A DNA stretch of 64,000 bases from Candidatus Moraniibacteriota bacterium (GTDB lineage: Bacteria > Patescibacteriota > Minisyncoccia > Moranbacterales > UBA1568). Below, piece by piece: positions 34,024-51,304 of the stretch (position 1 is its first letter; every line of letters begins with the position of its first letter). The stretch covers positions 69,010 through 133,009 of the forward strand of contig JAUSGT010000001.1 in the NCBI GenBank assembly GCA_030648835.1. Direction: 5' to 3'. The position numbers were made by a program, and so were the translations under genes. The notes under the pieces are model-generated. The model searched no databases and was not told where the DNA came from. It was given only the letters and a program-made list of their open reading frames with translations.

Positions 34024-34051
34024 TCGTCCGGGATGATAGGATGGACGTACT

Positions 34052-35504: not shown

Positions 35505-35812
35505 TCCATTGTAAAAAGCATATGAAATTACAGCTAGAAAAATTTGGCACGACGCTCATATCGCGGGAATTGGGGAGCGAGGCCTTCAAGGCATTCCAGT
35601 CGACTCTGCGCGAGCTTTCTCCTGATGAAGAGCTAGAAATAGATTTTTCTGGTGTACTGACATTGTCACCGTCATGGGCTGATGAATTTTTAAGTCCATT
35701 GCTGAATCAATTGGGTGACAGATTAATTCTTTTACCGAGTGACAATCTTTCAGTACACGCAACGCTCCGAATTCTTCAAGAGGCTAATAAGCAGAGTTTT
35801 ACGATGAAGTAA
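35480..35812 (+). CDS. STAS-like DUF4325-family protein (putative partner-switching antagonist)
   Basis: LEIDFSGVLTLSPSWADEFLSPLL resembles DUF4325. 25-nt overlap with the GHKL gene. Confidence 0.5.
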   Translation: MFSKDRILIHCKKHMKLQLEKFGTTLISRELGSEAFKAFQSTLRELSPDEELEIDFSGVLTLSPSWADEFLSPLLNQLGDRLILLPSDNLSVHATLRILQEANKQSFTMK

Positions 35813-35882
35813 TGTACCCCGCCCGCCGTGCTTGCTCTGTGAAATTGCAAAGCACCGACGGAGTCGGATTCCGCTTCGGAAA

Positions 35883-35922
35883 AAAGCCAAGAGCAGACAG
35901 AGTAAATATACTGAGCAGTGAA
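35883..35922 (+). repeat. Family-R repeat, copy 2 (variant AGCAGACAGAG)
   Basis: AAAGCCAAGAGCAGACAGAGTAAATATACTGAGCAGTGAA, followed by the conserved leader GTATTAAGGACTGGAAGAAATAAGAAT ATG. Confidence 0.6.
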
Positions 35923-35949
35923 GTATTAAGGACTGGAAGAAATAAGAAT

Positions 35950-36591
35950 ATGGCGTATATCTTTCTTGATGAAAGTGGTGATTTGGGGTTTGACTTCAAA
36001 AAGAAGGGCACTTCCAAGTTTTTTATTGTTACCATTCTCTTTACCGAAGACTCCAGAGGAGGGATTGAAAAGGTGGTGAAGAAAACACATTCAGAACTTG
36101 CGAAGAAATTCAAAAGACGTGTTGGTACATTGCATGCGGTTCAAGAAAAGCCCATTACCCGTACCCGTTTTCTGAAACGGATTGCCGAGAAGGAATGTGG
36201 TGTTATGGCTATTTATCTCAACAAGAAGAAGGTACATACGCATCTCCAGGACGAAAAACAAGTGCTTTACAATTACGTGACCAATATTCTCTTAGATAGA
36301 ATCTATACGAAAAAAATTCTTTCCCCGGATCTTGTCATAGAGCTCATCGCATCTCGGCGCGAAACCAACAAGTTTCTTAATGAAAACTTCAAAGATTACT
36401 TGAGCCGGCAAATAAAGAATAACCACAAAGGTCTTATGAAAATTTCCATTAAAACACCGGCTGAAGAGAAGTGTCTTCAGGCAGTAGACTTTCTGAGTTG
36501 GGCAATTTTTCGTAAATATGAGCGCGGAGATGAAAGTTACTACAATCTTTTCAAGAGAAAAATCATCGAGGAGAATCCTTTATTTCCGTAA
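35950..36591 (+). CDS. DUF3800-family protein
   Basis: N-terminal MAYIFLDESGD and C-terminal LQAVDFLSWAIFRKYE are DUF3800 hallmarks. Internal start of the 35812 ORF. Confidence 0.65.
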   Translation: MAYIFLDESGDLGFDFKKKGTSKFFIVTILFTEDSRGGIEKVVKKTHSELAKKFKRRVGTLHAVQEKPITRTRFLKRIAEKECGVMAIYLNKKKVHTHLQDEKQVLYNYVTNILLDRIYTKKILSPDLVIELIASRRETNKFLNENFKDYLSRQIKNNHKGLMKISIKTPAEEKCLQAVDFLSWAIFRKYERGDESYYNLFKRKIIEENPLFP

Positions 36592-36873
36592 AAACAAAAC
36601 CTCGTACGCTGTCTAGAGCAACCATCCGGAAGCCCACGTACGAGGATTTACTTGTATGCCTGTATTGTAGTAAATAAAACAAGACTTGTCAAGGGAAGGG
36701 GGCTGACGTATTTTTGCGTAAAAAATGGAATATTTTGGCTTGTTTTCTTTACGGAAGGGGGCATTTGGAGTAGATTGGTGATAGGTTTATCCCGCTTGCC
36801 GCGTTGCTGTACGAGATAGTCATGAATTTTCGGATTATACGGTAAAAGTATTGAGTTTATTCATTTTCCGTAA

Positions 36874-36913
36874 AAAGCCAAGAGCAGACAGAGTAAATAT
36901 ACTGAGCAGTGAA
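36874..36913 (+). repeat. Family-R repeat, copy 3
   Basis: Identical to the copy-2 variant. Immediately preceded by a stop codon in the peptide frame, so not part of an intact gene. Confidence 0.6.
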
Positions 36914-36935
36914 TCCATAGAATAGTATTGATGAT

Positions 36936-36963
36936 ATTCTCACATTCTGCAGAATGTCAGAAT
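36936..36963. promoter_or_regulatory. 28-bp palindrome P3 (hybrid of P1/P2, one mismatch) upstream of cupin copy 2
   Basis: ATTCTCACATTCTGCAGAATGTCAGAAT, about 80 nt upstream of the 37045 start. Confidence 0.5.
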
Positions 36964-37044
36964 GATTGGGTGGGTGGGGGGAGGTGGTATGATGGGTGTA
37001 CCAGAGGGGAAGATTCGTGTATTAAATAATAATATTTCAATACT

Positions 37045-37443
37045 ATGAAAGGATTCAACACACACATAGAAAAAGATACGCTCGAGAACACCGACTTCCG
37101 TCGCGTGCTTTACACAGGCTCGCACAGCCAGCTGGTATTGATGAGTTTGAAACCCAAAGAGGAGATCGGCCTCGAAACACATACCGGAAACGACCAGTTT
37201 TTTCGGATAGAAAAAGGCCACGGCATGTGCATCATCGACGGCCATGAGTATGCACTCGCCGATGGTTCGGCTATCGTGGTCCCGTCCGGCGCCAAACACA
37301 ATATCATCAACACGTCGGAGACAGAAGACCTCAAGCTCTATACCGTCTACTCTCCGGCGCACCATAAGGACGGCATTGTCAGGGCTACCAAAGAAGAAGC
37401 CGAAGCCAACGAAGCGGAGTTCGACGGCACAACAACCGAATAA
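37045..37443 (+). CDS. Cupin-domain protein, copy 2 (duplicate)
   Basis: Near-identical to 32257..32655, including ~80 bp of upstream leader and ~60 bp downstream. Confidence 0.75.
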   Translation: MKGFNTHIEKDTLENTDFRRVLYTGSHSQLVLMSLKPKEEIGLETHTGNDQFFRIEKGHGMCIIDGHEYALADGSAIVVPSGAKHNIINTSETEDLKLYTVYSPAHHKDGIVRATKEEAEANEAEFDGTTTE

Positions 37444-37465
37444 ATATTGGCCACTGCCAAAAATG

Positions 37466-37505
37466 AAAGCCAAGGGCAGGCATGATAAATATACTGAGCT
37501 GTGAA
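37466..37505 (+). repeat. Family-R repeat, copy 4
   Basis: AAAGCCAAGGGCAGGCATGATAAATATACTGAGCTGTGAA, then the leader GTATTAAGGATTGGAAGAAATAAAATT ATG. Confidence 0.6.
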
Positions 37506-37532
37506 GTATTAAGGATTGGAAGAAATAAAATT

Positions 37533-38018
37533 ATGAAAAAAACTAGTAGCAAGGGGATTGTTGGCGTATCTGGTGAATATTTTGTGGCTGCGGAACTTTC
37601 TCAGCGAGGCATTGTGGCTACCTTGACTCTCAAAAACACTCCCTATATCGACATACTTGCCACAAACTTAGAAAAGGGCACAACCGCCAACATTCAGGTG
37701 AAAACTATGTCTGTCGATAACAATGCTGGTTGGAGATTGGGGGAAAAAGATGGATTGCCTTCAAATATAAAGAATCACTTTTATGTGCTCGTTGATTTAC
37801 ATGGACCTGGTAAATTGCCCGAATATATAATCATACCCAAGAAAGTATTAGCAGATTTTATAAATAAGGGTCATGCTGAATGGCTTTTAGGAAAAAAGAA
37901 GGATGGCTCCTCTAGAAAAAATACTGGCGTTAGAGTTTTTGATCCAAACAGAAAAGTGTCTACTCGAAAATTTGCCGAAAAATACGTAAATAATTGGAGC
38001 ATATTAGATTTGTGGTAG
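37533..38018 (+). CDS. PD-(D/E)xK nuclease-fold protein (putative)
   Basis: GVSGEYFVAAEL...IDILATN...ANIQVKT matches an E...D...(Q/E)xK arrangement. Internal start of the 37482 ORF. Confidence 0.45.
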   Translation: MKKTSSKGIVGVSGEYFVAAELSQRGIVATLTLKNTPYIDILATNLEKGTTANIQVKTMSVDNNAGWRLGEKDGLPSNIKNHFYVLVDLHGPGKLPEYIIIPKKVLADFINKGHAEWLLGKKKDGSSRKNTGVRVFDPNRKVSTRKFAEKYVNNWSILDLW

Positions 38019-38026
38019 TAAAAGTT

Positions 38027-38374
38027 ATGGATAAGATAAAAGATTTGACTAAAAGAATACTAGCTTTCCGCAATGCTCGGGACTGGAAGCAATTTCACAA
38101 TCCGAAAGACGTGGCGCTCTCGCTGGTTTTGGAAGCGGCGGAGGTTATGGAACATTTCCAGTGGAAGAACCCGGCGGAAATTGAAGAGTATGTAAAAAAG
38201 CATAAGAAAGATATAGGCGAAGAATTGGCTGATGTTTTCAATTGGGTGTTGCTGCTGAGTCATGATTTGGGGATAGATATTGTAGAAGCGGCCAAAAAGA
38301 AAGTTAAAAAGAACGAAAAAAAGTACCCCGTAGAAAAAGCCAAAGGCAGGCATGATAAATATACTGAGCAGTGA
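38027..38374 (+). CDS. MazG-like nucleoside triphosphate pyrophosphohydrolase (small all-alpha NTP-PPase)
   Basis: ILAFRNARDWKQFHNPKDVALSLVLEAAEVMEHFQWK...ELADVFNWVLLLSHDLGIDI. The C-terminal tail is encoded by Family-R copy 5. Confidence 0.75.
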   Translation: MDKIKDLTKRILAFRNARDWKQFHNPKDVALSLVLEAAEVMEHFQWKNPAEIEEYVKKHKKDIGEELADVFNWVLLLSHDLGIDIVEAAKKKVKKNEKKYPVEKAKGRHDKYTEQ

Positions 38375-38375
38375 A
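38336..38375 (+). repeat. Family-R repeat, copy 5 (forms C-terminus of MazG-like gene)
   Basis: AAAGCCAAAGGCAGGCATGATAAATATACTGAGCAGTGAA. Confidence 0.6.
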
Positions 38376-38420
38376 TTGATTACCTCGCTGAGCAGGATTT
38401 CGCTAGGAATGTTAGGATAT

Positions 38421-38436
38421 ACGTAACGAGTTACGT
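38421..38436. promoter_or_regulatory. Palindrome ACGTAACGAGTTACGT upstream of AbrB-like gene (autoregulatory operator candidate)
   Basis: A 7-2-7 dyad. A related leader (GGTAGGATGGACGTAACGAGTTAGGTAACAGG) precedes the kinase-like gene. Confidence 0.4.
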
Positions 38437-38456
38437 AACAGGTTACATAACAAACT

Positions 38457-38615
38457 ATGAACAAAGAAATTAGAAAACTCACTAAGTTAGGGGGAAAATC
38501 CATCGGGCTGACCTTGCCGATTGAATTAGTTCGGGAGTTGGGGTGGAGGGAAAAACAGAAAGTGACCGTCAAGCGTGTTCGTGGGGGTGTGATGATTAAA
38601 GATTGGAAGAAATAG
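38457..38615 (+). CDS. AbrB/MazE/SpoVT-family small DNA-binding protein (antitoxin- or controller-like), 52 aa
   Basis: LTKLGGKSIGLTLPIELVRELGWREKQKVTVK fits the swapped-hairpin beta-barrel family. Not in the ORF track (under 60 aa). Confidence 0.45.
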   Translation: MNKEIRKLTKLGGKSIGLTLPIELVRELGWREKQKVTVKRVRGGVMIKDWKK

Positions 38616-38658
38616 GACTAATCTTGCAATAATATTAATGACGTGTTATTATTAGTGT

Positions 38659-39621
38659 ATGTCTGGTAAACAAGAAATAAAAATAATTCAAGAAACTTTC
38701 GACATAAACGCTATTTATGCAAGACGTGTTTTTGCTTCGGTGAATATTTCAAACTTTTTAGAGGAAGCGAGACAAATTATAACGAGCAAACCAAAGCCAT
38801 TTGTGAAATGGGTTGGGGGGAAGCGACAATTACTCAAGCAGTTTCGACTCCTTGATCTTTATCCACCGGACGAGTTTGATCCTGAGAAGGCAAGATATTT
38901 TGAGCCGTTTGTAGGGGGAGGCGCAGTGTTCTTTGATTTACTTCCGAGAAAGGCTTATTTGTCTGATCTTAATTTTGAGCTTGTCACAACTTATAATGTT
39001 ATTAAAAATGATGTTGAAAAGTTGATTACATCGTTAAAAAAACAAAAATATAATAAAGAGTATTATCTGAAAATCCGTTCAAAAAATCCTGAAAGGTTGT
39101 CTGATCTACAAATTGCTACTCGTTTTATATTTTTGAATCGCGCCGGCTTCAATGGGATGTATCGTGTAAATAGTAAAGGAGGGTTTAATGTTCCTTTCGG
39201 TAAATACGAGAATCCGCTTATTTGTGATGAAAAAAATCTTCGGAAAGTTTCGAAGGCGTTGCAGAATGTTGAAATAAAACACCAAGACTATAAGTTCGTT
39301 TTGAAGAAAGCAAAGAAAAGAGACTTTATATATTTTGATCCGCCATATCATCCAGTAAGTAAAACGGCAGCGTTTACTTCATATACCTCACAAGGTTTTG
39401 GGGAAAAAGAACAAATAGAATTACGTGATACATTTTTGAAACTTCACAAGAGAGGTTGTTTTGTGATGCTTTCAAATTCTGATGCGCCTTTTATTAATAA
39501 AATTTATTCTGAAATTAAAAAATATGGTGTCAGAATTAATAAGGTTGAAGCAGGGCGCGCAATAAATTCAAAGGCTTCTGGAAGGGGTAAGATCACAGAA
39601 ATATTGGTAACTAACTATTAA
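38659..39621 (+). CDS. Dam-family N6-adenine DNA methyltransferase (alpha class)
   Basis: FVKWVGGKRQLL, EPFVGGGAVFF, FLNRAGFNGMYRVN, IYFDPPYHP and LSNSD align with Dam motifs. Confidence 0.9.
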   Translation: MSGKQEIKIIQETFDINAIYARRVFASVNISNFLEEARQIITSKPKPFVKWVGGKRQLLKQFRLLDLYPPDEFDPEKARYFEPFVGGGAVFFDLLPRKAYLSDLNFELVTTYNVIKNDVEKLITSLKKQKYNKEYYLKIRSKNPERLSDLQIATRFIFLNRAGFNGMYRVNSKGGFNVPFGKYENPLICDEKNLRKVSKALQNVEIKHQDYKFVLKKAKKRDFIYFDPPYHPVSKTAAFTSYTSQGFGEKEQIELRDTFLKLHKRGCFVMLSNSDAPFINKIYSEIKKYGVRINKVEAGRAINSKASGRGKITEILVTNY

Positions 39622-39625
39622 TCTT

Positions 39626-40384
39626 ATGGCAAATAATAATTCGTGGAATAAAATTTTCGAAGATAATAATATTTTAGAGCACGATTTTTCTAAAAGCCCT
39701 TTTTATTTGTCTGCAGAAATGATAAAAAAATCAGTACAAGAGTTTAAGAAAACTAATGAGAAAGAGGTGCGTTGCTTATGTAAGATGGATACGCGAGAAA
39801 GCGTTCCAGAAATAATGAGAAGAAATGGATTGGTTTTGTTGCCAGTCAAAAATAAATATTATGTGATAGTAAACGGCGAAGGATATGTCGATATACCTGA
39901 AATCAATAGTGAAGCCGAAATCTACAACACTAAATTGGATTTTGATTTAGACACAGCGAAAATTGGAAACTCAGAAATGCAGCATCTTGATTTTGCTTAT
40001 GCTTCAAGCCTTATTAGAACATTCATGAGCGATCCTTCGCTAGTTCTAACAATTAGAGGGAGGAAATATACACCAGAGTTTAGTTATAAAATTGGTAACA
40101 ATATAATTGATACGAAGGGTGTTCAAACTGAAGTTGATGCCGGTTATGAAGGAAAGGACAAGATTGTTTTGATAGAAGCAAAGAACTCATCTACTAAAAA
40201 TACAATCATTAGACAATTGTATTATCCATATAGACAATGGGCAGAACACACAAAAAAGGAAGTCTTCTTATTATTTTTCGAGAAGAGGATTGATGAATAT
40301 TTGATATGGCAATACAGGTTTGCTGATAAAGACAGCTACGATTCTATTAAATTAGTTAGATCTAAAAAATATAAAATTGTTTAA
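39626..40384 (+). CDS. Putative type II restriction endonuclease (between two MTases; MboI/DpnII-like gene order)
   Basis: Sits between two DNA MTases in an M-R-M arrangement and has a PD-(D/E)xK-like VDAGYEGKDKIVLIEAK. Family not verified. Confidence 0.5.
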   Translation: MANNNSWNKIFEDNNILEHDFSKSPFYLSAEMIKKSVQEFKKTNEKEVRCLCKMDTRESVPEIMRRNGLVLLPVKNKYYVIVNGEGYVDIPEINSEAEIYNTKLDFDLDTAKIGNSEMQHLDFAYASSLIRTFMSDPSLVLTIRGRKYTPEFSYKIGNNIIDTKGVQTEVDAGYEGKDKIVLIEAKNSSTKNTIIRQLYYPYRQWAEHTKKEVFLLFFEKRIDEYLIWQYRFADKDSYDSIKLVRSKKYKIV

Positions 40385-41137
40385 GTGTCTGAAAAAGAGA
40401 TAAAACTGCATCCGGATGAGTTTGAAATGGAGTGCACTACAGTATGGGCATTTCCTCGTCGTGGTAATTGGGCTACACACAAGTCGGATTGGCGTGGTAA
40501 TTGGGCGCCAGAAGTTGCTCGAAATTTGATATTGCGTTATTCAAAGGAGGGTGATCATCTACTAGATTGCATGATCGGTGGTGGAACAACGGCAATAGAG
40601 GCAAAAATATTGAATCGTCATATTACTTGCGTTGATGTTAATGAAGAAGCTCTCAAACGGACAAGAGACGCTTTGAAATTTGATGTTGATAACAAAGCAA
40701 AACAACGAATAATAAAGTGCGATGCTCGAAACATGAGTTTTATCAAGGACGGAGAAATAGATTTTGTTCTCACTCATCCACCATACGCGGATATTATAAA
40801 ATATAGTGATGGAAAATTAGAGGATGACTTATCAGGTATACATAATATAGATGCCTTTGTAGATGAGATGGAGAAAGTTATCAAAGAAATGTTTCGAGTA
40901 CTAAAGAAAGGAAAATATTGTGCGATTTTGATGGGGGATACAAGACGGAATAAAATGTATCAGCCTCTCGCATTTAAGGTAATGGGTAGATGTCTGAGCG
41001 CAGGATTTGTCTTGAAAGAAGATATTATTAAAAGGCAGTTTAACTGTAAAGCAACTGGTTTTTGGGTGAATAGGTCAAAAGAGAGCAACTTTCTTTTAAT
41101 TATGCATGAACACTTATTTATTTTTCAGAAAATTTGA
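40385..41137 (+). CDS. DNA methyltransferase, N4/N6 family (second MTase of R-M module)
   Basis: AdoMet motif LLDCMIGGGTT and catalytic LTHPPYADI. Confidence 0.8.
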   Translation: MSEKEIKLHPDEFEMECTTVWAFPRRGNWATHKSDWRGNWAPEVARNLILRYSKEGDHLLDCMIGGGTTAIEAKILNRHITCVDVNEEALKRTRDALKFDVDNKAKQRIIKCDARNMSFIKDGEIDFVLTHPPYADIIKYSDGKLEDDLSGIHNIDAFVDEMEKVIKEMFRVLKKGKYCAILMGDTRRNKMYQPLAFKVMGRCLSAGFVLKEDIIKRQFNCKATGFWVNRSKESNFLLIMHEHLFIFQKI

Positions 41138-41250
41138 GATGCCAAAAAAGATACCATGAAAGATGTGAAAGATAAAGTAAAAAGATTTATTAATTGCATA
41201 GGTGAAAAACGTGGTGACGTTAATGAAATATTGATCATAAATTATTAAAT

Positions 41251-42924
41251 ATGCTTAACCTATTTAAAACTAAAAAAATACTTCAAGGCCCAGACTGGTC
41301 TTTTCAAGACGAAGCCGTAAAAAAAGTAGTTTCTGATTTTTTAAAGGAGCCACAAAGCAAAAAATTATTAGTCATCCCAACTGGAGGGGGGAAAACTATT
41401 GTTGGTTTTAAGGTCATTAACGAACTAATCGAAAAAGGCTTTCTTAAAAATGGCAAAAAAGCAGTTTGGATAGTTCATACAAAATGGTTAAAAAAACAAA
41501 CTGAACTAAAGCTAGTTTCAGCAATTGAAAAATTTCATTTTAATAAAGAAATACTCAGTATTCTTGAAATAAGAATGAAGTCAGATGCGCGTAATAATAT
41601 TTTTTTAACTCAAAAATCAAAAGAATATAAGATGGTAGTTATTGATGAGGCTCACCATTCAGCTGCAAATACTTACAAAGATTTTTTTAGACCTGATGTA
41701 AATGTACTTGGTCTAACAGCTACGCCCACAAGAACTGATGATCTCACGCTTGATTTTAAGGATATATCGTATGCAATTACTTTTAACGAACTTGTAAAAA
41801 GAAAAGTTATACTTTTACCAAAATTTATTACTGTAGAAACTGGGTTAACTATTGACGCCAGATCATTAAATTACTATTCGGAAAATGATTTTATTAAATT
41901 CGATATTGATGAAAGAAATAATATTATTGCCGAGAAAATATTCTTACTTAAAAGAAATAATAAAAGATCTTTTAATAAAATAATAATTTTCGTTGGATCT
42001 AATGCACATGTTAAGGAATTGTATGAAATACTGAAGAGAAAAAATAAGTTTTATGGAAACTTGTTCAAGTATGTTGGATACATATATAGTGGTGATAATA
42101 ATGATTTAAATATAGATAATGACTCATATTTAGAGAAACAACAGGGAATCAGCTCGTCAATATTAGTTAATTGTATGATTTTAAATGAAGGATACGACGA
42201 TCCTTCTATTGACACGGTAATAATGGCTACACCAAGTAACTCTATACTTTACTATATGCAATGCGTCGGGCGCGTGGTGCGTAATCCGGGTGGGTATAGC
42301 TCGAATGCAAATGTGGTGGAGATGGTAGATAAATTACCAAACATAAATTATAGGATTGATAACCGCTGGCTTTTTGCTGAAATTTCAGATCTCCTAGAGC
42401 CCGAGGTCATTGACGTTAGTTATGACTTTAACAACAAGGCCTCAGTTATTAGGAAGATTCTTTTGGAACACAAGGTCAAAGCTAAATATATTGATTTATT
42501 TGATGAGAAACAAAGCTTAGAGGATTTCACCTTACTCCTATTTGCAGACGCGCCAAATTATGAAGCTTCGACATGGAAGCCAATATATTTATTTGAAAAA
42601 AATCGTTCCAAATATATAGATGCTTTTAATAAAATCTCTGCTAATGTTTCTGAATATTCACGCTATAATGATGAATTTGTTTTTTTCCAGACTCTCAATT
42701 TTTCTAAAGACAATTATTATTTTAGGTATCCAGAAATGCGAATATCTCTCATACTAGCCCTTGAAAGAGCTAATAATTTAAAAAATTTAAAACAAAAGGT
42801 TGATTGTATTAAATACTATACTTTTCATGAAACACAATATAAAGCTTGGTGGAAAATTATTATTTCTTTGCTATTTAAATCATTAACTAAAATTTATGCA
42901 AACCTTAAAGGAAGTAGAGCTTAA
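41251..42924 (+). CDS. SF2 DEAH-box helicase (ResIII-like)
   Basis: Motif I VIPTGGGKT, II VIDEAHH, III LGLTATP and VI QCVGRVVR. Confidence 0.8.
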   Translation: MLNLFKTKKILQGPDWSFQDEAVKKVVSDFLKEPQSKKLLVIPTGGGKTIVGFKVINELIEKGFLKNGKKAVWIVHTKWLKKQTELKLVSAIEKFHFNKEILSILEIRMKSDARNNIFLTQKSKEYKMVVIDEAHHSAANTYKDFFRPDVNVLGLTATPTRTDDLTLDFKDISYAITFNELVKRKVILLPKFITVETGLTIDARSLNYYSENDFIKFDIDERNNIIAEKIFLLKRNNKRSFNKIIIFVGSNAHVKELYEILKRKNKFYGNLFKYVGYIYSGDNNDLNIDNDSYLEKQQGISSSILVNCMILNEGYDDPSIDTVIMATPSNSILYYMQCVGRVVRNPGGYSSNANVVEMVDKLPNINYRIDNRWLFAEISDLLEPEVIDVSYDFNNKASVIRKILLEHKVKAKYIDLFDEKQSLEDFTLLLFADAPNYEASTWKPIYLFEKNRSKYIDAFNKISANVSEYSRYNDEFVFFQTLNFSKDNYYFRYPEMRISLILALERANNLKNLKQKVDCIKYYTFHETQYKAWWKIIISLLFKSLTKIYANLKGSRA

Positions 42925-44044
42925 GTTTGATCAACTTTTACTTGACCCAAATAATCCTCGTTTTGCTAAGCATAGCGATGAGCTTGTTGCTGAAGATGAC
43001 TATGAGGAAATGCAGTCCGAGACCTTTTCAAAGATGATTCAGAGGGAAAACAACTTTGAAATTGCGGAGCTTGCAAAAAATATTAGCAAAAATGGGTACC
43101 TAGGTTTTGACAGGATGTTTGTTAAAAAATTAAAAGGATCTAAGTTTCTAGTTATTGAAGGCAATAGAAGGTTAGCTGCCATTTATTTTCTTCTAAAGCA
43201 GGAAGAATCACACCGCACAAGAGGAGCTCTCGCCCCAGAAATTAAAAAAACATTTTTAAAGATACCCTGTGTTGATCTTACAAATTGGGAAACGGAAGAT
43301 ATAAAGAGGTTGCTTGGCCTCAGACACTATGATTCTGTAAAAGATTGGAGGCCCCTGCCAGGTTCATTCAATCTTTTCTTAACGTATATGGCGGAATATG
43401 CAAAAGTGAACAATATTGAAATCTTGAATAGCGACCACGCAAAGCATTTTATTTATGATCAAAATATTAGTAGAAAGATAGCAGATATCTATGCAATGAA
43501 GGAAGCGAGGGTTAAGTCAATGATCTTAACTTACAGAGTATATCTTCAAGTTTTGGAATATCACAACGATATCAACTTTGAAACAACGAATCTTTTTTCC
43601 ATAATTGAAGAGACTATAAGTAAGGAAATTTTGAGGAAAAGATTTGAGTTTGATCCATCCGCGGGCCAGTTTTCTGAAAATGGACTAGAATTGTTTATTG
43701 ACTTATGTATTGGAAAAGATGGAAGTGCCCCAGTTATAACTGAAGTGTCACGCGGCGAATCTACTCTAAGAGACTATGCTTATGTTCTACAGGAAGGGAG
43801 TGACTACGATCGTGAACGAATAGAGCTGAACAAAGAAAAAAGTGGTGATGTGAAAGCAGATGTTAAATCAAGTCAAAATCAAAGAAATTTAATAAATACT
43901 CTGAAGCAAATTAAATTAGAATTAGGAAAAATTAATCTTGACCAGATAAAGATTGATGATATTACAGACCGTGAAAAAGAAATTATCGATGATCTACAGG
44001 AAACACTGAACAAGCTAAAAGGGGCATCAGGGGGAAAACTTTAA
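42896..44044 (+). CDS. ParB/Srx-fold nuclease-like domain protein
   Basis: LLLDPNNPRF (ParB box I-like) and VIEGNRRLAAIYFL (GxRR motif). 29-nt overlap with the helicase gene. Confidence 0.7.
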   Translation: MQTLKEVELKFDQLLLDPNNPRFAKHSDELVAEDDYEEMQSETFSKMIQRENNFEIAELAKNISKNGYLGFDRMFVKKLKGSKFLVIEGNRRLAAIYFLLKQEESHRTRGALAPEIKKTFLKIPCVDLTNWETEDIKRLLGLRHYDSVKDWRPLPGSFNLFLTYMAEYAKVNNIEILNSDHAKHFIYDQNISRKIADIYAMKEARVKSMILTYRVYLQVLEYHNDINFETTNLFSIIEETISKEILRKRFEFDPSAGQFSENGLELFIDLCIGKDGSAPVITEVSRGESTLRDYAYVLQEGSDYDRERIELNKEKSGDVKADVKSSQNQRNLINTLKQIKLELGKINLDQIKIDDITDREKEIIDDLQETLNKLKGASGGKL

Positions 44045-44049
44045 ATAGT

Positions 44050-44991
44050 ATGAGTGATCTTTACTTTCGAAAAACTTACAGTGAATTCGTTGAGTTTGTT
44101 TCCAACACTAATGATGAACTTATTATCTTATGTCCGTATATAAAACTAGAACCATTAAAATTGCTATTAGAAAAAGTTAAACCAGGAATAAAGGTAATAG
44201 TTGTAGCAAGATGGAAAATTAGTGATTTGGTATTTGGGAGTTCTGATATTGAGGTTTTTGAATATTTGAAAAGTCTTAATCATAGTTTTTACATTAACAA
44301 TAAAATACACCTTAAGGTCATTATTAAAGATAAAAGGAATATATTAATTGGAAGTGCAAATATAACAGGATCTGGGCTTGGGCTGTTTGATAGTTCAAAT
44401 ATTGAGGCTATTGCCATCGAGAGCTTAGATGAGAAGTATTTACCATCAGTATATTCAATACTAAGAGAATCAATAGAAGTCGATGATGTTTTGGTTAATA
44501 CAATATCTGAAAAGTTAGAAGGGTTTCAAAATGTTAGAGAAGAAAAAGACAAAATTACTGCTGAATTGGGGGAATTAGAAAAACAGATATTTATAAAAAA
44601 GAAAAAAGGGATTTTGGTTTATGATTTTCCTTTTACAGGATCGCCGGCAGTACTCCTTAAAGCTATAAATGAAAAAGATATTAATGATACTGTCCAACAT
44701 GATCTTCAGGTATTAAAATTAACTACTAGAGAGATTAATCTTAGTTTATTGAGGGAGGCATTTTTAACGTCAGACGCCTATATTTGGCAAGAACAAAATA
44801 TCCCAGAAGAAGCTCTCTTTGGAAAGTATTCGGAGTTACTTCATAATGCTCTAATTGATGATCCTAAGCCTTATCGAAAACAGGTAAAGGAGTTAGTAGT
44901 AAATATGTTTGTTTGGACATCAGAACTTTCAGACGATTATGTTATAAAAAAATATAATCATACCCAATCTCTAGTCAGGAGACAAAATTAA
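44050..44991 (+). CDS. PLD-family (HKD) nuclease-like protein
   Basis: A single HKD motif HLKVIIKDKRNILIGSAN (H-x-K-x4-D-x6-GSxN). Confidence 0.75.
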   Translation: MSDLYFRKTYSEFVEFVSNTNDELIILCPYIKLEPLKLLLEKVKPGIKVIVVARWKISDLVFGSSDIEVFEYLKSLNHSFYINNKIHLKVIIKDKRNILIGSANITGSGLGLFDSSNIEAIAIESLDEKYLPSVYSILRESIEVDDVLVNTISEKLEGFQNVREEKDKITAELGELEKQIFIKKKKGILVYDFPFTGSPAVLLKAINEKDINDTVQHDLQVLKLTTREINLSLLREAFLTSDAYIWQEQNIPEEALFGKYSELLHNALIDDPKPYRKQVKELVVNMFVWTSELSDDYVIKKYNHTQSLVRRQN

Positions 44992-44999
44992 TATACGGA

Positions 45000-45467
45000 A
45001 TGAAGAAAAGTATTACTGATATCAATTGGATGAGGTTCAAAACGACTAAAGGTCAAGAGTTTGTTGTGGGTGTAGATTTTACCGCAGAAGACGCATTCAT
45101 TAAAGCTAAAGAATTGCGACAAGAAGGAAAAGCAATAGATGCTCTAGGTGTAATCGATGTATCACTTTATTTAGATTGGAATAGGCCTGCTGCACATAAT
45201 ATTAAGGCAAGCATTTTACTTACTTTAAAGCGATTTGGTGAAGCAATTAGTTCGTGTGATGAAGCAATTCGACTGAATCCGAATTTGGCGGAGTCTTTTA
45301 ATAATAAAGCAGTAATATTAAAGGCATCTGAGAATTATGAGGATGCACTTACCTTGATTGAGAAAGCCCTTGATTTAAATCCAGATAATCCCGCACTTAT
45401 TTATAATAAGGAGAGTATTTTAGAAGCTCTGCGAAATCAAAATGGTCTAAATAGGAAAATGGGCTAG
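45000..45467 (+). CDS. TPR-repeat protein
   Basis: Three or more TPR-like repeats (AISSCDEAIRLNPNLAESFNNKAVIL...ALDLNPDNPALIYNK). Confidence 0.7.
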   Translation: MKKSITDINWMRFKTTKGQEFVVGVDFTAEDAFIKAKELRQEGKAIDALGVIDVSLYLDWNRPAAHNIKASILLTLKRFGEAISSCDEAIRLNPNLAESFNNKAVILKASENYEDALTLIEKALDLNPDNPALIYNKESILEALRNQNGLNRKMG

Positions 45468-45543
45468 GTACTTTTTTCTTGCAAAAGGAGTACAAAGGCG
45501 GCACAACTGAATAGCGAACTATCGAGAGAGTGGCGGTGGGGGG

Positions 45544-45572
45544 CTTGCTATTTTCATAAAAGTATGCTATAA
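45544..45572 (+). promoter_or_regulatory. Sigma70-like promoter (TTGCTA-17-TATAAT)
   Basis: Near-consensus -35 and a perfect -10 with 17-nt spacing, about 125 nt upstream of the AbiEii-like gene. Confidence 0.5.
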
Positions 45573-45654
45573 TGGGTGTGTAAAAGAAGAAAAAAATAAA
45601 AACCATCCAAAATATTAAAAGAAGTTAGGAAAGAGCCATATTCACAAGATATTC

Positions 45655-45687
45655 CACACCCCAGTCTTCTGGGGTGTTTTTATTTAT
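45655..45687 (+). terminator. Rho-independent terminator-like hairpin between promoter and AbiEii-like gene
   Basis: ACACCCCAG tctt CTGGGGTGT followed by TTTTTATTTATT, 12 nt before the start codon. Confidence 0.5.
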
Positions 45688-45699
45688 TAACCCACTAGT

Positions 45700-46908
45700 A
45701 TGTTAGGTAAAGAAGAAATTGATCAGAAAGCGGCGGAATTTGGTTTAAATCCTGTAGATGTAGAAAAGGATTATGTTTATGGATGGCTTTTAAATTCCAT
45801 TTACTCGGACTCTTCTTTGGGGGACCTGCTTGTGTTAAAAGGTGGAAATGCTTTAAGAAAAGGTTATCTGCTAGGGACACGGTTTTCTAAAGACCTAGAT
45901 TTTTCTCTAGAAAAAGGAATACAAATAGATTTTCTTCACGAAGAATTAGATAAAGTTTGTTCAGTAGTCAATGCTCAAACTCAAGTAAAATTTGAACTAG
46001 ATCGGACTAGGGTTGAACCTAAGAATCTGCCGATTGCTAACCTTGATGTGTTGGAGGCAAGACTCTATTTTAAGGGTTTTTATGGGGAAGAGACTATTTC
46101 TCTTAAAACGCAACTAGATATCACCCAGTTTGATAAGATCTACCTCCCAGTTCAGTCAAGGAAAATTCTGCATCCTTATTCAGACGCAGAAGCTTGTAGT
46201 GGAAATATCAAATGTCAAAAAGCTGAAGAAATTGTTGCTTCTAAACTTAATAGTCTTCTCCATAGAAGGAAAGTCTGTGATTTATTTGATCTTCTTAAGT
46301 CTACGATGTTTACCAACGATGTTTTGTTGGATAGATCAGAGGTAGTTAAAACTTTTCTGAAGAAGACTATTTATGAGGCTACTCCAGATACACCAAAACA
46401 ACAGCTTCTTAGCACTCCTTTGGAAGAGTTCCGTCCATTTTGGGGAAGTCTGGTGACTCCAAATGCTAGTATCATCCAATTTGATGATGTGGTGGCAAAC
46501 TTCGGAGTTTTAATTAGTAGTTTTTTTGACTTGGTAGCTCCTTTATCTCCACAATTTGTTCCAGCTGGAGCTTTTGGTGGCTCCAGAAGATATGGGTCGT
46601 CTATGATGCGGTATGGGAGTGTGCCTAGTTTTTTCTCAGCTGGTATACGAAATATCATTATTAATGCCGGAAGAACTCAGAAGCTTATTCAGCTTACCTA
46701 TGACAACTATACAAGGTTAGTAGAACCGTATTCAATGGAGTATTATGTTCGAAAATCAGACGGGGTAGGATTGGAATATTTTTGGGGATATGATACAACT
46801 GGTGGAAAATCAGGAGAACAGTCGATAAAGAGGTTCATTTGTGACAAAATACAATTTGCCAAAGAAACAGATAGGGGCTTTAATCCAAGGTTTGCGGTTG
46901 AATTTTAA
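45700..46908 (+). CDS. AbiEii/DUF1814-family nucleotidyltransferase (abortive-infection toxin-like) with ~100-aa C-terminal extension
   Basis: EKDYVYGWLL...LVLKGGNALRKGYLLGTRFSKDLDFS is the AbiEii signature. No AbiEi-like gene is adjacent. Confidence 0.8.
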   Translation: MLGKEEIDQKAAEFGLNPVDVEKDYVYGWLLNSIYSDSSLGDLLVLKGGNALRKGYLLGTRFSKDLDFSLEKGIQIDFLHEELDKVCSVVNAQTQVKFELDRTRVEPKNLPIANLDVLEARLYFKGFYGEETISLKTQLDITQFDKIYLPVQSRKILHPYSDAEACSGNIKCQKAEEIVASKLNSLLHRRKVCDLFDLLKSTMFTNDVLLDRSEVVKTFLKKTIYEATPDTPKQQLLSTPLEEFRPFWGSLVTPNASIIQFDDVVANFGVLISSFFDLVAPLSPQFVPAGAFGGSRRYGSSMMRYGSVPSFFSAGIRNIIINAGRTQKLIQLTYDNYTRLVEPYSMEYYVRKSDGVGLEYFWGYDTTGGKSGEQSIKRFICDKIQFAKETDRGFNPRFAVEF

Positions 46909-46922
46909 TTAGATAGGAAAGT

Positions 46923-47528
46923 ATGAATAATGCCTTTGATGAAATTTTAGAGAAATCGAAACGAGATATGAAAGAAATCTCGGATGAATTTAATGTCAAA
47001 TTTAGAGAATTCGATACTAAGTTGGAATCATCACGGAAACTAAGTATTTCAGCAATATATCAAATAGTTATTCTGTCATCTAGTATCGTTGGATTTTCAG
47101 TGTCCCTTTTTTCGATCCCTGTCTTGCAGTCTAGATTAAATTTGGATAACCTCCGTTTTTCTTGGTATTTTTTTATGTCGGTTATTATGTTAGGATTCTT
47201 TATTCTAATTTTTGAGGGAAGAGCAAAATATGCAAAAACATGGAAAAATTTTCAAGTGAGTAGATTTCCAGATGCGGGTGATTATAATTACACGATTAAA
47301 GAAAAAATTATTGCAACATCTATTGTTATATTAACTATCTTTTATCCTGCGAATTTAATATTCAACAGGGTTTACAAGGAGGAAAGTGAAAAAGCTTTTA
47401 AGCAAAGAATAAACGGATTTGTAGTACACAAATTAGCGAGTATAGAAAACGCATTAATTTTTCTAGAAAACATCCTTTTTATATTATTTATATGTGGATT
47501 AATTATACTAGTTTCAAGTTTTTCATAG
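46923..47528 (+). CDS. Hypothetical membrane protein (201 aa)
   Basis: Four predicted TM segments, AT-rich codon usage like the island. Confidence 0.45.
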   Translation: MNNAFDEILEKSKRDMKEISDEFNVKFREFDTKLESSRKLSISAIYQIVILSSSIVGFSVSLFSIPVLQSRLNLDNLRFSWYFFMSVIMLGFFILIFEGRAKYAKTWKNFQVSRFPDAGDYNYTIKEKIIATSIVILTIFYPANLIFNRVYKEESEKAFKQRINGFVVHKLASIENALIFLENILFILFICGLIILVSSFS

Positions 47529-47669
47529 ATGAAGAAAAGAGAGTCAGATACCTTTTTGATACGAATTTCTCAGTCTCTGGGCTTCCTCCATAGGCGGACA
47601 GGGGGTTTTTGTTTGGGTGTATACTGAACAAATGCAGATGTCATTCAATAATTAAGGCAATAAAAGAAT

Positions 47670-47924
47670 ATGGATGAGCACGTTGAGAAGGAAGGACTCA
47701 AACATCTTGAGAACATAGAGCAGGACCTCGACGAGATAAAAGAACGCACGCCGACGCCGCGGCGTGCTTTTACCTATGGTCTGTGGCAAGGGGCAGGGGC
47801 ACTCATCGGAGGCATTCTGGCGCTGACTCTCTTGGGCTGGGCATTATCGTTCTTCGGGATCATTCCCGGCTTTGCCGATGTTGCCAAGTACTTCCAAGAT
47901 ATTGTGAGCAACTTTCGCCGCTAG
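47670..47924 (+). CDS. Small membrane protein (84 aa)
   Basis: Charged N-terminus plus a double TM hairpin (GLWQGAGALIGGILALTLLGWALSFFGII). Confidence 0.45.
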   Translation: MDEHVEKEGLKHLENIEQDLDEIKERTPTPRRAFTYGLWQGAGALIGGILALTLLGWALSFFGIIPGFADVAKYFQDIVSNFRR

Positions 47925-47952
47925 CCAATCCAACAAAAACTCAAGAAAAAAA

Positions 47953-48213
47953 ATGAGCTATTATCTCTATATTCTCAAATGTGCGGATGGGACGTTGTAT
48001 ACGGGAATCACCGTTGATTTGAAGAGAAGAATTATCGAACACAATAGTTCGGCGCTCGGAGCGAAGTACACGCGGGGTCGTCGGCCGGTCACACTTATTT
48101 TTTCCAAAAAATTTCGCACGCGTTCCACTGCATCCGTTGCCGAATCCCGTATCAAGAAACTTTCTCGCGAAGAAAAACTCGATGTAGTAAAAAAATATGC
48201 AGATCGAATATGA
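47953..48213 (+). CDS. GIY-YIG nuclease superfamily protein (UPF0213-like)
   Basis: YYLYILKCADGTLYTGITVDLKRRIIEHN. Confidence 0.75.
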   Translation: MSYYLYILKCADGTLYTGITVDLKRRIIEHNSSALGAKYTRGRRPVTLIFSKKFRTRSTASVAESRIKKLSREEKLDVVKKYADRI

Positions 48214-48775
48214 GGCGACGTTTCCAGATGTAGAGAAGGAAGTCGTGCGCGAAAAATTGAAACAAGCCGGAGCGGTTTTGGTGCGGCCGGAATTCTTGCA
48301 GAAGCGGGTGGTATTCGATATGCCTCTCGGGCATGAGCTTGCCGGCGGCTGGGTGCGGGTACGCGATGAGGGAGACAGAGTGACTATGAGCATCAAGATC
48401 GTGAGCGGCGATAAGATAGACGATCAGAAAGAAATGTGTCTCACAGTGGATAGTTTCGAACAAGGGGAAGCATTTCTCACGACGCTCGGATGCCGGAAAA
48501 AATCGTACCAGGAAACCAAGCGTGAACTGTGGACGCTCGATGGTACGGAGATCACCATTGATGAGTGGCCGTTTCTCAATCCATTTGTCGAAGTGGAAGG
48601 TAAGTCCGAAGCAATGGTGAAACGAGTGGCGGAGCGCATCGGTTTCGATTATCGGCAAGCGCTTTTCGGAGCGGTGGATGTACTCTATATAAGGCAGTAT
48701 CCGCATCTGACTTTCAAGCGTATCAACAAAACGCCGCGCATCGTTTTCGCTGGTGAAAATTCTTTTCTCAATTAG
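48197..48775 (+). CDS. CYTH-domain (triphosphate tunnel metalloenzyme) protein
   Basis: N-terminal MQIEYEATF (EXEXK-like), RVR...ExK pattern and the length. 17-nt overlap with the GIY-YIG gene. Confidence 0.65.
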   Translation: MQIEYEATFPDVEKEVVREKLKQAGAVLVRPEFLQKRVVFDMPLGHELAGGWVRVRDEGDRVTMSIKIVSGDKIDDQKEMCLTVDSFEQGEAFLTTLGCRKKSYQETKRELWTLDGTEITIDEWPFLNPFVEVEGKSEAMVKRVAERIGFDYRQALFGAVDVLYIRQYPHLTFKRINKTPRIVFAGENSFLN

Positions 48776-48961
48776 AGAATTTTTGTTTTACATGTCAACG
48801 GCTCAAGGGAGCTGTTTTTTGGTGCACAAAGAGTGCATAACTTTTTGGCTTGTTCCACTCACATTGGCAGAAAATATTGCTATTTACGCTTCATATAAGC
48901 CTTCAAACGCCTGTTTATCAGGCGTTTTCTTTGCGTGTGATTTTGGGCATTTTCGGCGAGG

Positions 48962-49035
48962 TTGACGCTTTCCCAGAGAGTGGCGTAGAATGGGGACATA
49001 TTGAACTAAAGTGGGTTGAAGTGGGGAAAGCCATA
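48962..49035 (+). promoter_or_regulatory. Putative dcw promoter (TTGACG-18-TAGAAT) with TGGGN direct repeats (MraZ-box-like)
   Basis: TGGGG / TGGGT / TGGGG repeats, the last two exactly 10 bp apart, immediately downstream of the -10. Confidence 0.4.
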
Positions 49036-49135
49036 AAAACTTACGGCACACAACTTGTGACTCACAACGCAGTCATGTTGTGCATTTCAAGAATATAAGG
49101 ATTTGTTTCCGATTGTTGGTCGTCAGTAAAAAATT

Positions 49136-49570
49136 ATGTTCATCGGAGAATACTCACACACGATCGATCCCAAAAAGCGCCTGGCGCTTCCTTCAAAGTT
49201 CCGAGGCGAATTGGGAAACAAAGTGGTGGTGACGCGCGGACTGGATTCCTGTCTCTTCGTCTATCCGATGAAAGTGTGGGAAGAACTGGCGGCGAAGATC
49301 GGTACTCTGCCGGTGGGTGGAGCGGGGACACGCAGTTTCACTCGGCTGATGCTCGCCGGCGCCACGGATGTGGAACTGGATAGTCAGGGGCGGGTACTCC
49401 TTCCGGAATATCTGAAGCAAGACGGCGGACTGAAAAAAGATGTTACCATCGTGGGGCTCTACAACCGTTTGGAAATCTGGGATACGAACAAATGGAATAA
49501 GTATAAATCGCAAGCGGAAAAGAATACCGGAAAGATTGCCGAAGAGTTGGGCAAGTTGGGAGTGTACTGA
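49136..49570 (+). CDS. mraZ: Transcriptional regulator MraZ
   Basis: MFIGEYSHTIDPKKRLALPSKFR... with the duplicated DXXXR motif. Confidence 0.9.
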   Translation: MFIGEYSHTIDPKKRLALPSKFRGELGNKVVVTRGLDSCLFVYPMKVWEELAAKIGTLPVGGAGTRSFTRLMLAGATDVELDSQGRVLLPEYLKQDGGLKKDVTIVGLYNRLEIWDTNKWNKYKSQAEKNTGKIAEELGKLGVY

Positions 49571-49692
49571 CATTTAATACCTAATATCTAATACCTAATA
49601 AAAATCAAACATCAAAATTCAAAATGAGAAGGGCGATTCAAAAATCAAACATCAAAGTTTAGCAAGAATAAATTTTTAAGTTTGAGGGTTGG

Positions 49693-50691: not shown

Positions 50692-50744
50692 GGAGCGATC
50701 GGAAAAGAGCAATTTCTCTCAAAAAACCCTCCTTCGCTAAAGCT

Positions 50745-51185: not shown

Positions 51186-51304
51186 ATGAAGAGTCTGTTC
51201 AAAATCTCCATATTCTGCCGCGAATCATAAATTTCGGTTATCGGTTTCGGTAGCGAGACGGGTAAGCTCCGGATAGGGATTTTTTAAAGAGACTCTGAAG
51301 GAAT

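Follow-up and report, generated by a model that had tools for sequence, protein, structure and literature searches.

We examined a stretch of 64,000 nucleotides from a Candidatus Moraniibacteriota bacterium (contig JAUSGT010000001.1, positions 69,010 to 133,009), called the window below, and within it a low-GC island of nine genes, all on the + strand and together spanning 38659-47528. A sequence-only reading of this DNA had taken it for a single, horizontally acquired island carrying a restriction-modification (R-M) module, a helicase/ParB/PLD/TPR operon and an AbiEii-like toxin. The island and its genes, including two DNA methyltransferases (MTases) M1 and M2, a restriction endonuclease (REase) R and a helicase of superfamily 2 (SF2), are as follows.

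38600 to 47650, + strand: low-GC island
38659 to 39621, + strand: M1, Dam-family (D12, DpnM-like) N6-adenine DNA MTase with a DPPY motif
39626 to 40384, + strand: R, PD-(D/E)XK REase of the DUF6996+DUF6997 family
40385 to 41137, + strand: M2, N6_N4-family DNA MTase with permuted motif order
41251 to 42924, + strand: SF2 helicase (ResIII/DEAD plus Helicase_C; PF04851, PF00270, PF00271) with an uncharacterised C-terminal part of ~200 aa
42896 to 44044, + strand: predicted ParB/Srx-superfamily protein, its gene overlapping the helicase gene by 29 nt
44050 to 44991, + strand: putative nuclease of the PLD/HKD family, with one HKD motif and a conserved C-terminal domain
45000 to 45467, + strand: TPR protein of 155 aa (TPR_1, E 1.7e-15), a variable accessory gene of the helicase cassette
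45700 to 46908, + strand: solitary long-form AbiEii-family nucleotidyltransferase of 402 aa with a conserved C-terminal extension
46923 to 47528, + strand: small protein of 201 aa with hydrophobic, probably transmembrane stretches (membrane character judged by eye), the last low-GC gene

The motifs quoted in the sequence-only reading are present, namely FIYFDPPYHP in the open reading frame (ORF) starting at 38659, LTHPPYAD in that starting at 40385 and LKGGNAL...RFSKDLDF in that starting at 45700, and its domain labels (D12/Dam MTase, REase, N6_N4 MTase, ResIII/DEAD helicase, ParB-like, PLD, TPR, AbiEii) hold.

Sliding-window GC bore out the abrupt shift to AT-rich DNA claimed at ~38.6 kb and the return at ~47.65 kb. 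The GC content of 38600-47650 is 0.335, versus 0.488 for 1-34700 and 47651-64000 taken together. The 1-kb windows inside the island (mean 0.335, sd 0.018, maximum 0.372) do not overlap with those outside (mean 0.488, sd 0.027, minimum 0.421), and the 9-kb window of lowest GC within the entire 64 kb begins at 38601. A two-boundary maximum-likelihood fit placed the change points at 37480 and 47670. GC at third codon positions (GC3) is 0.23-0.32 in the nine island genes versus 0.54-0.63 in flanking core genes, and the composition-normalised tetranucleotide correlation is 0.43-0.46 between island and core, versus 0.94-0.95 between core segments, confirming that the island has a k-mer signature of its own. 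The source is a metagenome-assembled genome, and genomes of the candidate phyla radiation (CPR) are compositionally heterogeneous; both facts would suit an assembly chimera, or a native region made AT-rich by local mutation or selection. An independent assembly, Logan contig L001, is nevertheless 100% identical to window 37404-54044 across both island borders, and since it spans both junctions, the region is not a chimera of one assembler. Moreover, the segment is missing at the syntenic site of a related genome (see below), and its modules stay at ~0.33 GC in hosts that range from flanks of 0.36-0.45 GC to genes of mostly 0.53-0.65 GC. We therefore hold a chimeric or native origin to be very improbable.

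The island is nested inside a larger variable region with fixed borders.

30192 to 31586: M17 aminopeptidase gene (pepA), left border
31587 to 49135, no strand assigned: strain-variable hotspot
49136 to 49570: mraZ, right border

Related genomes were retrieved by means of RsmH, which is encoded in the dcw cluster immediately right of the island, and the window proteins were mapped onto their loci. In L007, the M17 peptidase homolog (72% aa identity) is followed after ~275 bp by mraZ (88% aa identity), the gene order being radical-SAM, MiaB-like, Exo_endo_phos, MgsA, M17 aminopeptidase, mraZ-rsmH-ftsL-ftsI-murE, and no match to any window protein encoded in 32257-48775 was found in this locus. 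The adjacency of the M17 gene and mraZ means that all of 31587-49135 is absent there. In L002, a closer relative (MraZ 98% identical in aa), unrelated cargo lies upstream of mraZ, and only a GIY-YIG gene and ~300 bp upstream of mraZ are shared with the hotspot. The switch in gene content reported at 38.6 kb needs one correction: the M17 peptidase gene, at ~31.6 kb, is the last housekeeping gene left of the island, and the interval 31.6-38.6 kb is accessory and mosaic (GC 0.43 over 34.7-38.6 kb, GC3 from 0.36 to 0.65 across 31.6-38.6 kb).

Horizontal acquisition was upheld by the foreign composition, by the empty site in L007 and by the finding of the modules, equally poor in GC, in unrelated hosts. 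The island is therefore real and foreign, but it is not the single unit that had been claimed, as it is composite and nested in a 17.5-kb hotspot. Our best explanation, which we consider likely as a whole, is that the segment is a horizontally acquired, composite defence island stacking three separable modules: M1-R-M2, the helicase cassette and, as a third, independent element of the abortive-infection type, AbiEii with the small hydrophobic protein. A defence island as such is an ordinary kind of finding, and the structure of this one is described below, starting with the R-M module and the two features that precede it.

38457 to 38615, + strand: small AbrB/MazE-like ORF of 52 aa, directly upstream of the R-M module and at the same position in L008
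38624 to 38652, + strand: promoter-like site TTGCAA-17-TATTAT with TG, upstream of M1, found by consensus scan only

The gene order M-R-M and the Dam/DpnM-like character of the first MTase, both noted in the sequence-only reading, were borne out. M1 matches PF02086 (E 2.5e-61) and TIGR00571 (290 bits, cut-off 115), and its nearest PDB entry is DpnM (2dpm, E 2e-73, 251 bits), far above any other solved MTase. It conserves the EcoDam positions K9, N120, R124, P134 and Y138, which we take to be those reading GATC (Horton et al. 2006), while L122 is replaced by M, R137 by K and, as in DpnM, Y119 by F. M1 thus most probably marks GATC. R matches PF22515 and PF22518, as well as the PADLOC profile REase_II PDLC03513 (E 1.5e-30), and belongs to a family of 968 clusters at 50% identity with a conserved D171...E-A-K186 (the D...E-x-K signature). 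No PDB sequence match was found for R, and its AlphaFold2 (AF2) model, of high confidence (pLDDT 97), is without a close solved relative; weak fold matches, to the C-terminal half only, were to PD-(D/E)XK nucleases (Cas4-family, RecU, McrC, HincII). In M2, the S-adenosylmethionine (SAM)-binding motif at about residue 62 precedes THPPYA at about residue 130, and PF01555 matches in two stretches whose order is swapped. It is covered in full length by the PADLOC profile MTase_II PDLC03376 (E 1e-89), and HPPY is kept in all homologs examined.

These three genes are conserved as a unit in L008 (85% nt identity), L009/L010 (73%) and L011/L012 (72-77%, with one extra ORF). Each locus has different, unrelated flanks, with homology ending at the gene ends, and the GC of the unit is 0.32-0.34 in all loci, with host flanks at 0.36-0.45. 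The REase is identical to a protein of a Candidatus Moranbacteria metagenome-assembled genome, and copies 80-95% identical to it are found under the names of at least six other CPR groups (Gracilibacteria, Woesebacteria, Parcubacteria, Vogelbacteria, Nomurabacteria and Paceibacterota), whereas the RsmH proteins of two other Moranbacteria are just 54-76% identical to that of the window. The REase identity across CPR groups and the constant low GC, set against the divergence of RsmH, point to a mobile CPR R-M module. With adjacent MTases and a separate PD-(D/E)XK endonuclease that are conserved together, M1-R-M2 is, judged from its sequence, a Type II R-M unit circulating among CPR lineages.

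Three side observations concern relatives of the module and its upstream ORF. In L011/L012 (10791-11411), the Gracilibacteria module has an extra ORF of 206 aa, with no Pfam match, between R and M2. The AbrB/MazE-like ORF of the window has a weak Pfam MazE_antitoxin match (in the L001 gene table) and a match to TIGR02609 doc_partner (E 0.0035) below the cut-off; its 79% nt match in L008 is at 5788-5934, where (4814-5934) the AbrB-like ORF comes after a Fic-domain gene, in what looks like a Doc/Fic-antidote pair. After the R-M module of L008, at 8773-12433, a lambda Ea47-like protein and a UvrD helicase form a possible defence pair.

The resemblance to MboI/DpnII-type GATC systems that had been proposed stood for M1 only. 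Like DpnII, MboI and LlaDCHI systems, the module has two MTases and one REase, in the M-R-M order which we take to be that of MboI, and M1 is close to DpnM with its GATC-contact residues. Unlike in these systems, R belongs to the DUF6996/DUF6997 PD-(D/E)XK family: no signal of the DpnII family PF04556 was found in R with Pfam, nor any similarity by BLASTP to the PF04556 enzyme of L013. M2 is permuted and has HPPY, whereas DpnA is a beta-class MTase with DPPY before FxGxG; between M2 and a DpnA-type MTase, the SAM motif alone aligns (33% identity over 48 aa) and the motif order is reversed. The genuine DpnII-type system of L013 (D12, N6_N4, PF04556) differs in both REase and second MTase.

Several observations speak against a GATC system. 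GATC is not depleted (observed/expected 1.11 within the island, 0.82 for the core), although such a count cannot discriminate between the alternatives. Given also that R is not DpnII-like, GATC specificity has to be inferred from M1, and as we identified no characterised member of the DUF6996/DUF6997 family, the specificity of the system is not deducible from R. Two different MTases could mean an asymmetric recognition site. D12-class MTases include enzymes that do not act on GATC. M1-R-M2 may then recognise another, possibly asymmetric site, hence the two methylases, and the palindromic tetramers most depleted besides CTAG are in fact CATG (observed/expected 0.58-0.65) and GGCC (0.66-0.69). 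Against this stand the closeness of M1 to DpnM, with the EcoDam GATC-reading residues kept, and the same residues in the D12 MTases linked to a helicase cassette or to a DpnII-type system at other loci. We consider a site other than GATC rather unlikely. As an observation on the window as a whole, CATG (0.65) and GGCC (0.69) are its most under-represented palindromic tetramers, CTAG being at 0.48 in the core, and the CATG and GGCC depletion might be the mark of further R-M systems, NlaIII-like or HaeIII-like, in this lineage.

The comparison with L008 also revealed how the second module came to lie where it does.

41142 to 45521, + strand: block inserted relative to L008 (helicase, ParB-like, PLD and TPR genes)
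45522 to 45692, + strand: 3′ flanking sequence of the R-M module, shifted downstream by the insertion

The window and L008 are homologous up to 41141, just past the end of M2, and again from 45522 onwards; what immediately follows the M2 stop codon in L008 is the counterpart of window 45522-45688, with 80% identity. The displaced flank contains a degenerate repeat of the M2 3′ end, ~20 nt long (45522-45540) and similar to the repeat remnants described below for the left part of the hotspot. A promoter-like site with the sequence TGnTATAAT (45545-45573) comes next, and then an intrinsic terminator (45656-45677) followed by a T run; the terminator hairpin is kept between window and L008 with one compensatory pair. 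Because homology is broken at 41141 and 45522, the block must have been inserted between the M2 stop codon and the module's own terminator. A small RNA or riboswitch, considered for 45574-45692, was rejected, as this segment reduces to an A-rich stretch and the terminator hairpin, i.e. to the 3′ end of the module. Within the block, genes are tightly packed (-29 nt between helicase and ParB-like genes, 5 nt between ParB-like and PLD genes, 8 nt between PLD and TPR genes), and a scan found no terminator-like site between M2 and the helicase gene. With the block placed before the module terminator and no terminator after M2, a single unit of seven genes is plausible, and M1 to TPR are probably transcribed together.

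The four proteins of the block were then characterised. In the helicase, the Walker A motif GGKT, DEAHH, TATP and motif VI (Q..GR..R) are invariant among eight cassette homologs. The ParB-like protein of the window has no Pfam match, PF02195 being recorded for its homologs, but its AF2 model (pLDDT 85.6) was matched by Foldseek to KorB, Noc, ParB and Spo0J with a probability of ~1.0 over 250-270 columns. The match spans the nucleoside triphosphate (NTP)-binding domain and the helical DNA-binding domain, i.e. the N-terminal ~270 residues. By its predicted fold, the protein is a member of the ParB/Srx superfamily and a putative NTP-binding clamp. The motifs LLLDPNNPRF and VIEGNRR are invariant in its family, which is small (264 matches, ~20 full-length relatives). 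It resembles the CTP-dependent clamps ParB, KorB and Noc in the predicted fold of these ~270 residues and in both signature motifs, and differs from them in having EGNRR (EGNRRLAA) in place of GERR (GERRxRA), an unrelated C-terminal third, and a context of defence instead of partition. The PLD protein scored 25 bits with PF13091, just below the cut-off of 27, and contains HLKVIIKD...GSANIT, of which H, K and S.N are invariant among six homologs. The slot of the TPR gene is occupied elsewhere by a HEPN_Swt1 protein (L019) or by a DUF1232 protein on the opposite strand (L015 and L016). Pfam searches at E up to 5 gave nothing usable on the C-terminal parts of the ParB-like, PLD, helicase and AbiEii proteins, nor on the ORFs of 291, 149, 161 and 201 aa.

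To see in what company the cassette is found, 160 loci of ParB relatives were fetched and their neighbours surveyed. A helicase is encoded immediately upstream of the ParB-like protein in all close relatives (L013/14, L015/18, L016, L017, L019), and a PLD protein after it in L015/18, L016 and L019. Gene orders in these loci are given below.

L015/L018: D12 MTase, helicase, ParB, PLD
L019: D12 MTase, helicase, ParB, PLD, HEPN
L017: helicase, ParB, D12 MTase (opposite strand); a tyrosine integrase adjoins
L016: PD-(D/E)XK, helicase, ParB, PLD; N6_N4 MTase 1.1 kb downstream
L013/L014: genuine DpnII-type system (D12, N6_N4, PF04556 REase), four small genes, helicase, ParB

The D12 MTase of L019 is 70% identical to M1, and its gene overlaps the helicase start by 4 nt; the D12 MTases of all cassette loci keep the GATC-contact residues. 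In L015 (1668-7128, the same as L018 5071-10531), the genes for MTase, helicase, ParB, PLD and opposite-strand DUF1232 protein have a GC of 0.31-0.35, with surroundings made mostly of genes of 0.53-0.65 GC, except for one nearby ORF of 110 aa that is also low (0.345). Such a low-GC set among high-GC genes argues that the complete cassette moves as a unit, here into a host of unrelated ancestry. A DNA MTase gene lies within ~5 kb in 6 out of 6 close loci, the window included, versus 6 out of 102 distant ParB loci without helicase (Fisher's exact test ~5e-7, computed by hand and ignoring phylogeny). A more distant helicase-ParB homolog adjoins dndCDE. A scan of IMG/VR yielded ParB relatives at the level of the N-domain alone, and no close cassette.

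Two further arrangements were encountered among distant relatives. L021 and L023 have two or three tandem ParB-like paralogues between helicase and PLD genes, and in L021 DndB is encoded upstream and a NERD/UvrD-like helicase downstream. In L086 (1679-4464), the gene of an HPPY MTase of the M2 type (54% identical to M2) stands directly before that of a distant ParB-like protein, after which an Mrr_cat-like nuclease is encoded, so that the locus, by its predicted products, shows the same MTase-ParB-nuclease theme made from different parts.

Several named systems share parts with the cassette. The nearest is PD-lambda-5 (Vassallo et al. 2022, PMC9519451), a compacted RM+Abi system in the words of its authors, which PADLOC models as a two-gene unit of a protein A and a D12-type MTase, protein B. 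The likeness consists in a protein that shares the N-terminal ParB-like region and is paired with a Dam-class MTase; in contrast to the cassette, PD-lambda-5 lacks separate genes for an SF2 helicase and a PLD protein, and is prophage-borne in E. coli. The ParB-like protein of the window was matched in its N-terminal part only by the PADLOC profiles PDC-M38A (E 1e-25) and PD-Lambda-5_A (E 2e-15). Membership was rejected, as just ~100 N-terminal residues (~4-106) match A profiles that are 430-500 long; M1 matches the PD-lambda-5 B profile at 7e-17, versus 1e-95 for Type II MTase profiles. DISARM is likewise a multigene, methylase-linked system with a helicase and a PLD-family protein (DrmC), but it uses other helicases and has no ParB-like gene. 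It was set aside because no match to DrmA (the DUF1998 helicase) or DrmB was found in Pfam, PADLOC or NCBIfam, and the window PLD protein resembles DrmC weakly (NCBIfam 22.5 bits, cut-off 133).

A third comparison is with PbeABCD, linked to Dnd phosphorothioation, where an SF2 helicase and an HKD nuclease form the restriction side of a modification-keyed system; one distant helicase-ParB relative of the cassette, as said, adjoins dndCDE. In PbeA, the HKD nuclease and the SF2 helicase are fused in one protein, whose partners are a CxC ABC ATPase (PbeC) and a DndE-like protein (PbeD) (PMC10853773), and Xiong et al. found many pbeAC loci near MTases rather than dnd genes (PMC6459918, PMC10853773). 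Pbe has no ParB-like protein, though, and in the window the HKD protein is encoded by a separate gene. Membership was rejected here too: the window helicase resembles PbeA in its helicase part alone, and neither an ABC ATPase nor DndE is present. Both ParB-like and HKD domains have been catalogued as nuclease families found in R-M contexts, and operons of a ParB nuclease and a DNA methylase have been noted (PMC3710099). Our literature search found no paper on PDC-M38, on DUF6996/6997 or on the MTase-helicase-ParB-PLD combination; its coverage was incomplete, so this is absence of evidence only.

From the gene content and the neighbourhoods, we infer that the cassette would be an ATP-dependent, methylation-keyed restriction module that relies here on M1 for self-protection. 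The sequence-only reading had labelled its genes correctly, but had treated them as mere island cargo, where a modification-linked, restriction-like system is suggested. In such a system, the methylase would mark self DNA, with GATC as the most probable site; the ParB/KorB-like protein would load on DNA, sense it or scan it, possibly under NTP control; the SF2 helicase would translocate, and the HKD nuclease would cleave unmarked DNA. Single-HKD nucleases dimerise, and the one encoded here probably does likewise. The window cassette has no methylase of its own, and M1 methylation would protect self DNA instead. As the cassette sits inside the R-M operon and M1 is in the same clade as the L019 methylase, dependence on M1 is the simplest reading.

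More broadly, the combination of MTase, SF2 helicase, ParB/KorB-like protein and PLD protein may constitute a distinct, unnamed R-M-like defence system, in which a ParB clamp with an NTP switch loads or senses for a helicase-driven HKD nuclease. Copies that had lost their own methylase (the window, L013/14) would survive by inserting directly downstream of a resident R-M system with matching (Dam/GATC) methylation, one methylase then licensing two unrelated restriction machines. This broader proposal is tentative: we give it a real chance, short of calling it probable. The main rival takes the helicase block for a system of defence or DNA transactions in its own right, blind to neighbouring methylation and merely co-located in a hotspot; it could be a Type IV-like, Hachiman-like or DISARM-like effector that responds to some other trigger. 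Defence islands do cluster unrelated systems, and the block is separable from M1-R-M2. What weighs against a methylation-keyed module points in the same direction. The census amounts to ~6 independent close loci, with kinship ignored, and defence genes cluster anyway. The partner modification varies among loci (D12, N6_N4, Dnd), and the more distant L021 and L023 have no MTase on their short contigs. Co-transcription is deduced from the absence of a terminator alone, with a gap of 113 nt before the helicase gene, and comparison of the sequences upstream of helicase genes across loci revealed no conserved leader. Mere co-location, on the other hand, fits poorly with the 4-nt overlap between a Dam-type MTase gene and the helicase start in L019, with the L015/L018 set, MTase included, being one low-GC insert, or with the contrast in MTase adjacency between close and distant loci. 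In the window itself, the block is not simply nearby, but wedged between the M2 stop codon and the module terminator. We regard an autonomous block as somewhat doubtful, and keep a methylation-keyed module as the reading to be preferred.

Downstream of the displaced terminator lies the third module. The AbiEii-like protein matches PF08843 (E 1.8e-19, 71 bits, cut-off 22.5) and, in full length, the PADLOC profile AbiEii PDLC02317 (E 7e-45 to 1e-41), and its family is widespread and well conserved, with 52-64% identity even to a Bradyrhizobium protein. Like AbiE type IV toxin-antitoxin systems, it has the AbiEii nucleotidyltransferase domain with conserved motifs, so that the toxin domain recognised in the sequence-only reading stands. 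A canonical AbiE pair is not present: no AbiEi family match was found in any neighbour, the upstream gene encodes the TPR protein, and the 233-nt gap before the AbiEii gene has no + strand ORF of at least 20 aa. The protein further differs from AbiE in being a 400-aa form with an extra conserved C-terminal domain, and in being solitary here and in two other contexts, its homologs in L096 and L097 lying in conjugative or recombinase contexts. A WYL domain at its C-terminus was considered and dropped, as it had no Pfam support at E up to 5. The gene of the 201-aa protein has a GC of 0.29 and a GC3 of 0.25; no family match was found for the protein, and it is not conserved beside the AbiEii homologs of L096 and L097.

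These contexts, together with the tyrosine integrase adjoining the cassette relative L017 and the presence of MTase and helicase families in phages as well, would also suit a remnant of a prophage, plasmid or integrative element, in place of a defence island built by cassette exchange. Domain scans of the window proteins found no integrase, transposase or other recombinase domain in 31.6-49.1 kb, an interval that also lacks tRNA, structural and replication genes; the tRNA and Rfam scans of the window gave no match. The failure to find a close cassette relative in IMG/VR and the way in which homology to other genomes ends at gene boundaries likewise disfavour a remnant, to which we give little credence. 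Neither was a repeat pair bracketing 38.6-47.65 kb found, and it must be counted against our own reading of an acquired, composite island that no mobility gene, tRNA or flanking repeat accounts for the insertion of the island or its modules.

Repeats in the leftward portion of the hotspot may be traces of exchange. A segment of 530 bp, consisting of a cupin gene and a repeat called half A, is duplicated at 91% identity (32188-32717 and 36984-37505). Half A, 40 nt long, is the 3′ end of a MazG-like gene (ending in KAKGRHDKYTEQ and the stop codon) and is present in five copies; half B, ~24 nt long, is the 3′ end of the AbrB-like ORF (ending in IKDWKK and the stop codon) and is present in three.

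32678 to 32717, 35883 to 35922, 36874 to 36913, 37466 to 37505, 38336 to 38375: copies of half A
35923 to 35946, 37506 to 37529, 38593 to 38616: copies of half B

The two halves abut at two places, where the spacer of ~220 nt present at 38376-38592 is missing, and two identical copies of half A bracket a DUF3800 gene. The A and B repeats look like scars of cassette exchange through recombination at gene ends. An integron-like reading of the 40-nt junction repeats was rejected, since they are remnants of gene 3′ ends and are not attC-like.

Other features of the same region were recorded in passing. The perfect palindrome ACATTCTGACATTCTGCAGAATGTCAGAATGT is intergenic and present in three copies (32737-32770, 33048-33081, 36933-36964), the last two being followed by a GGGGGAGGTGGTA(G/T)GATGG box, which gives them an operator-like look. 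The segment 33111-33143 is similar to 38410-38442 (ACGTAACGAGTTACGTAACAGG). At 34785-35812, in the zone of intermediate GC, the gene of a 239-aa protein with a MerR/HTH_17 domain overlaps that of a small STAS-like DUF4325 protein; the two may be a regulatory or defence-associated pair. Finally, L007 (CAYVHS010000005.1) and L004 are titled 'uncultured Bdellovibrionales', yet they are syntenic with the Moranbacteria window and their proteins are 64-88% identical, so these public taxonomic labels look wrong.

CPR bacteria, or Patescibacteria, are mostly without CRISPR and are thought to depend on defence of the R-M type; genomic islands bearing R-M systems have already been published, as has the finding that the transferred part of these genomes is enriched in defence genes (PMC12455944). 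What is added here is the modular structure of one such island at the base-pair level, the restriction of its DpnII-likeness to M1, and a recurrent, uncharacterised methylase-linked helicase/ParB/PLD cassette. The locus offers a base-pair view of how CPR defence is assembled, with a fixed pepA-mraZ hotspot and gene-sized cassettes that are swapped, one of them wedged into the operon of another, at its 3′ end. With 80-95% aa identity across CPR classes, above that of a housekeeping gene within Moranbacteria, M1-R-M2 points to intense exchange of an uncharacterised REase family. If the helicase cassette is indeed keyed to methylation, a ParB-type clamp would join the known subunits of R-M systems, and the arrangement in the window would be an example of 'methylase sharing' between stacked systems.

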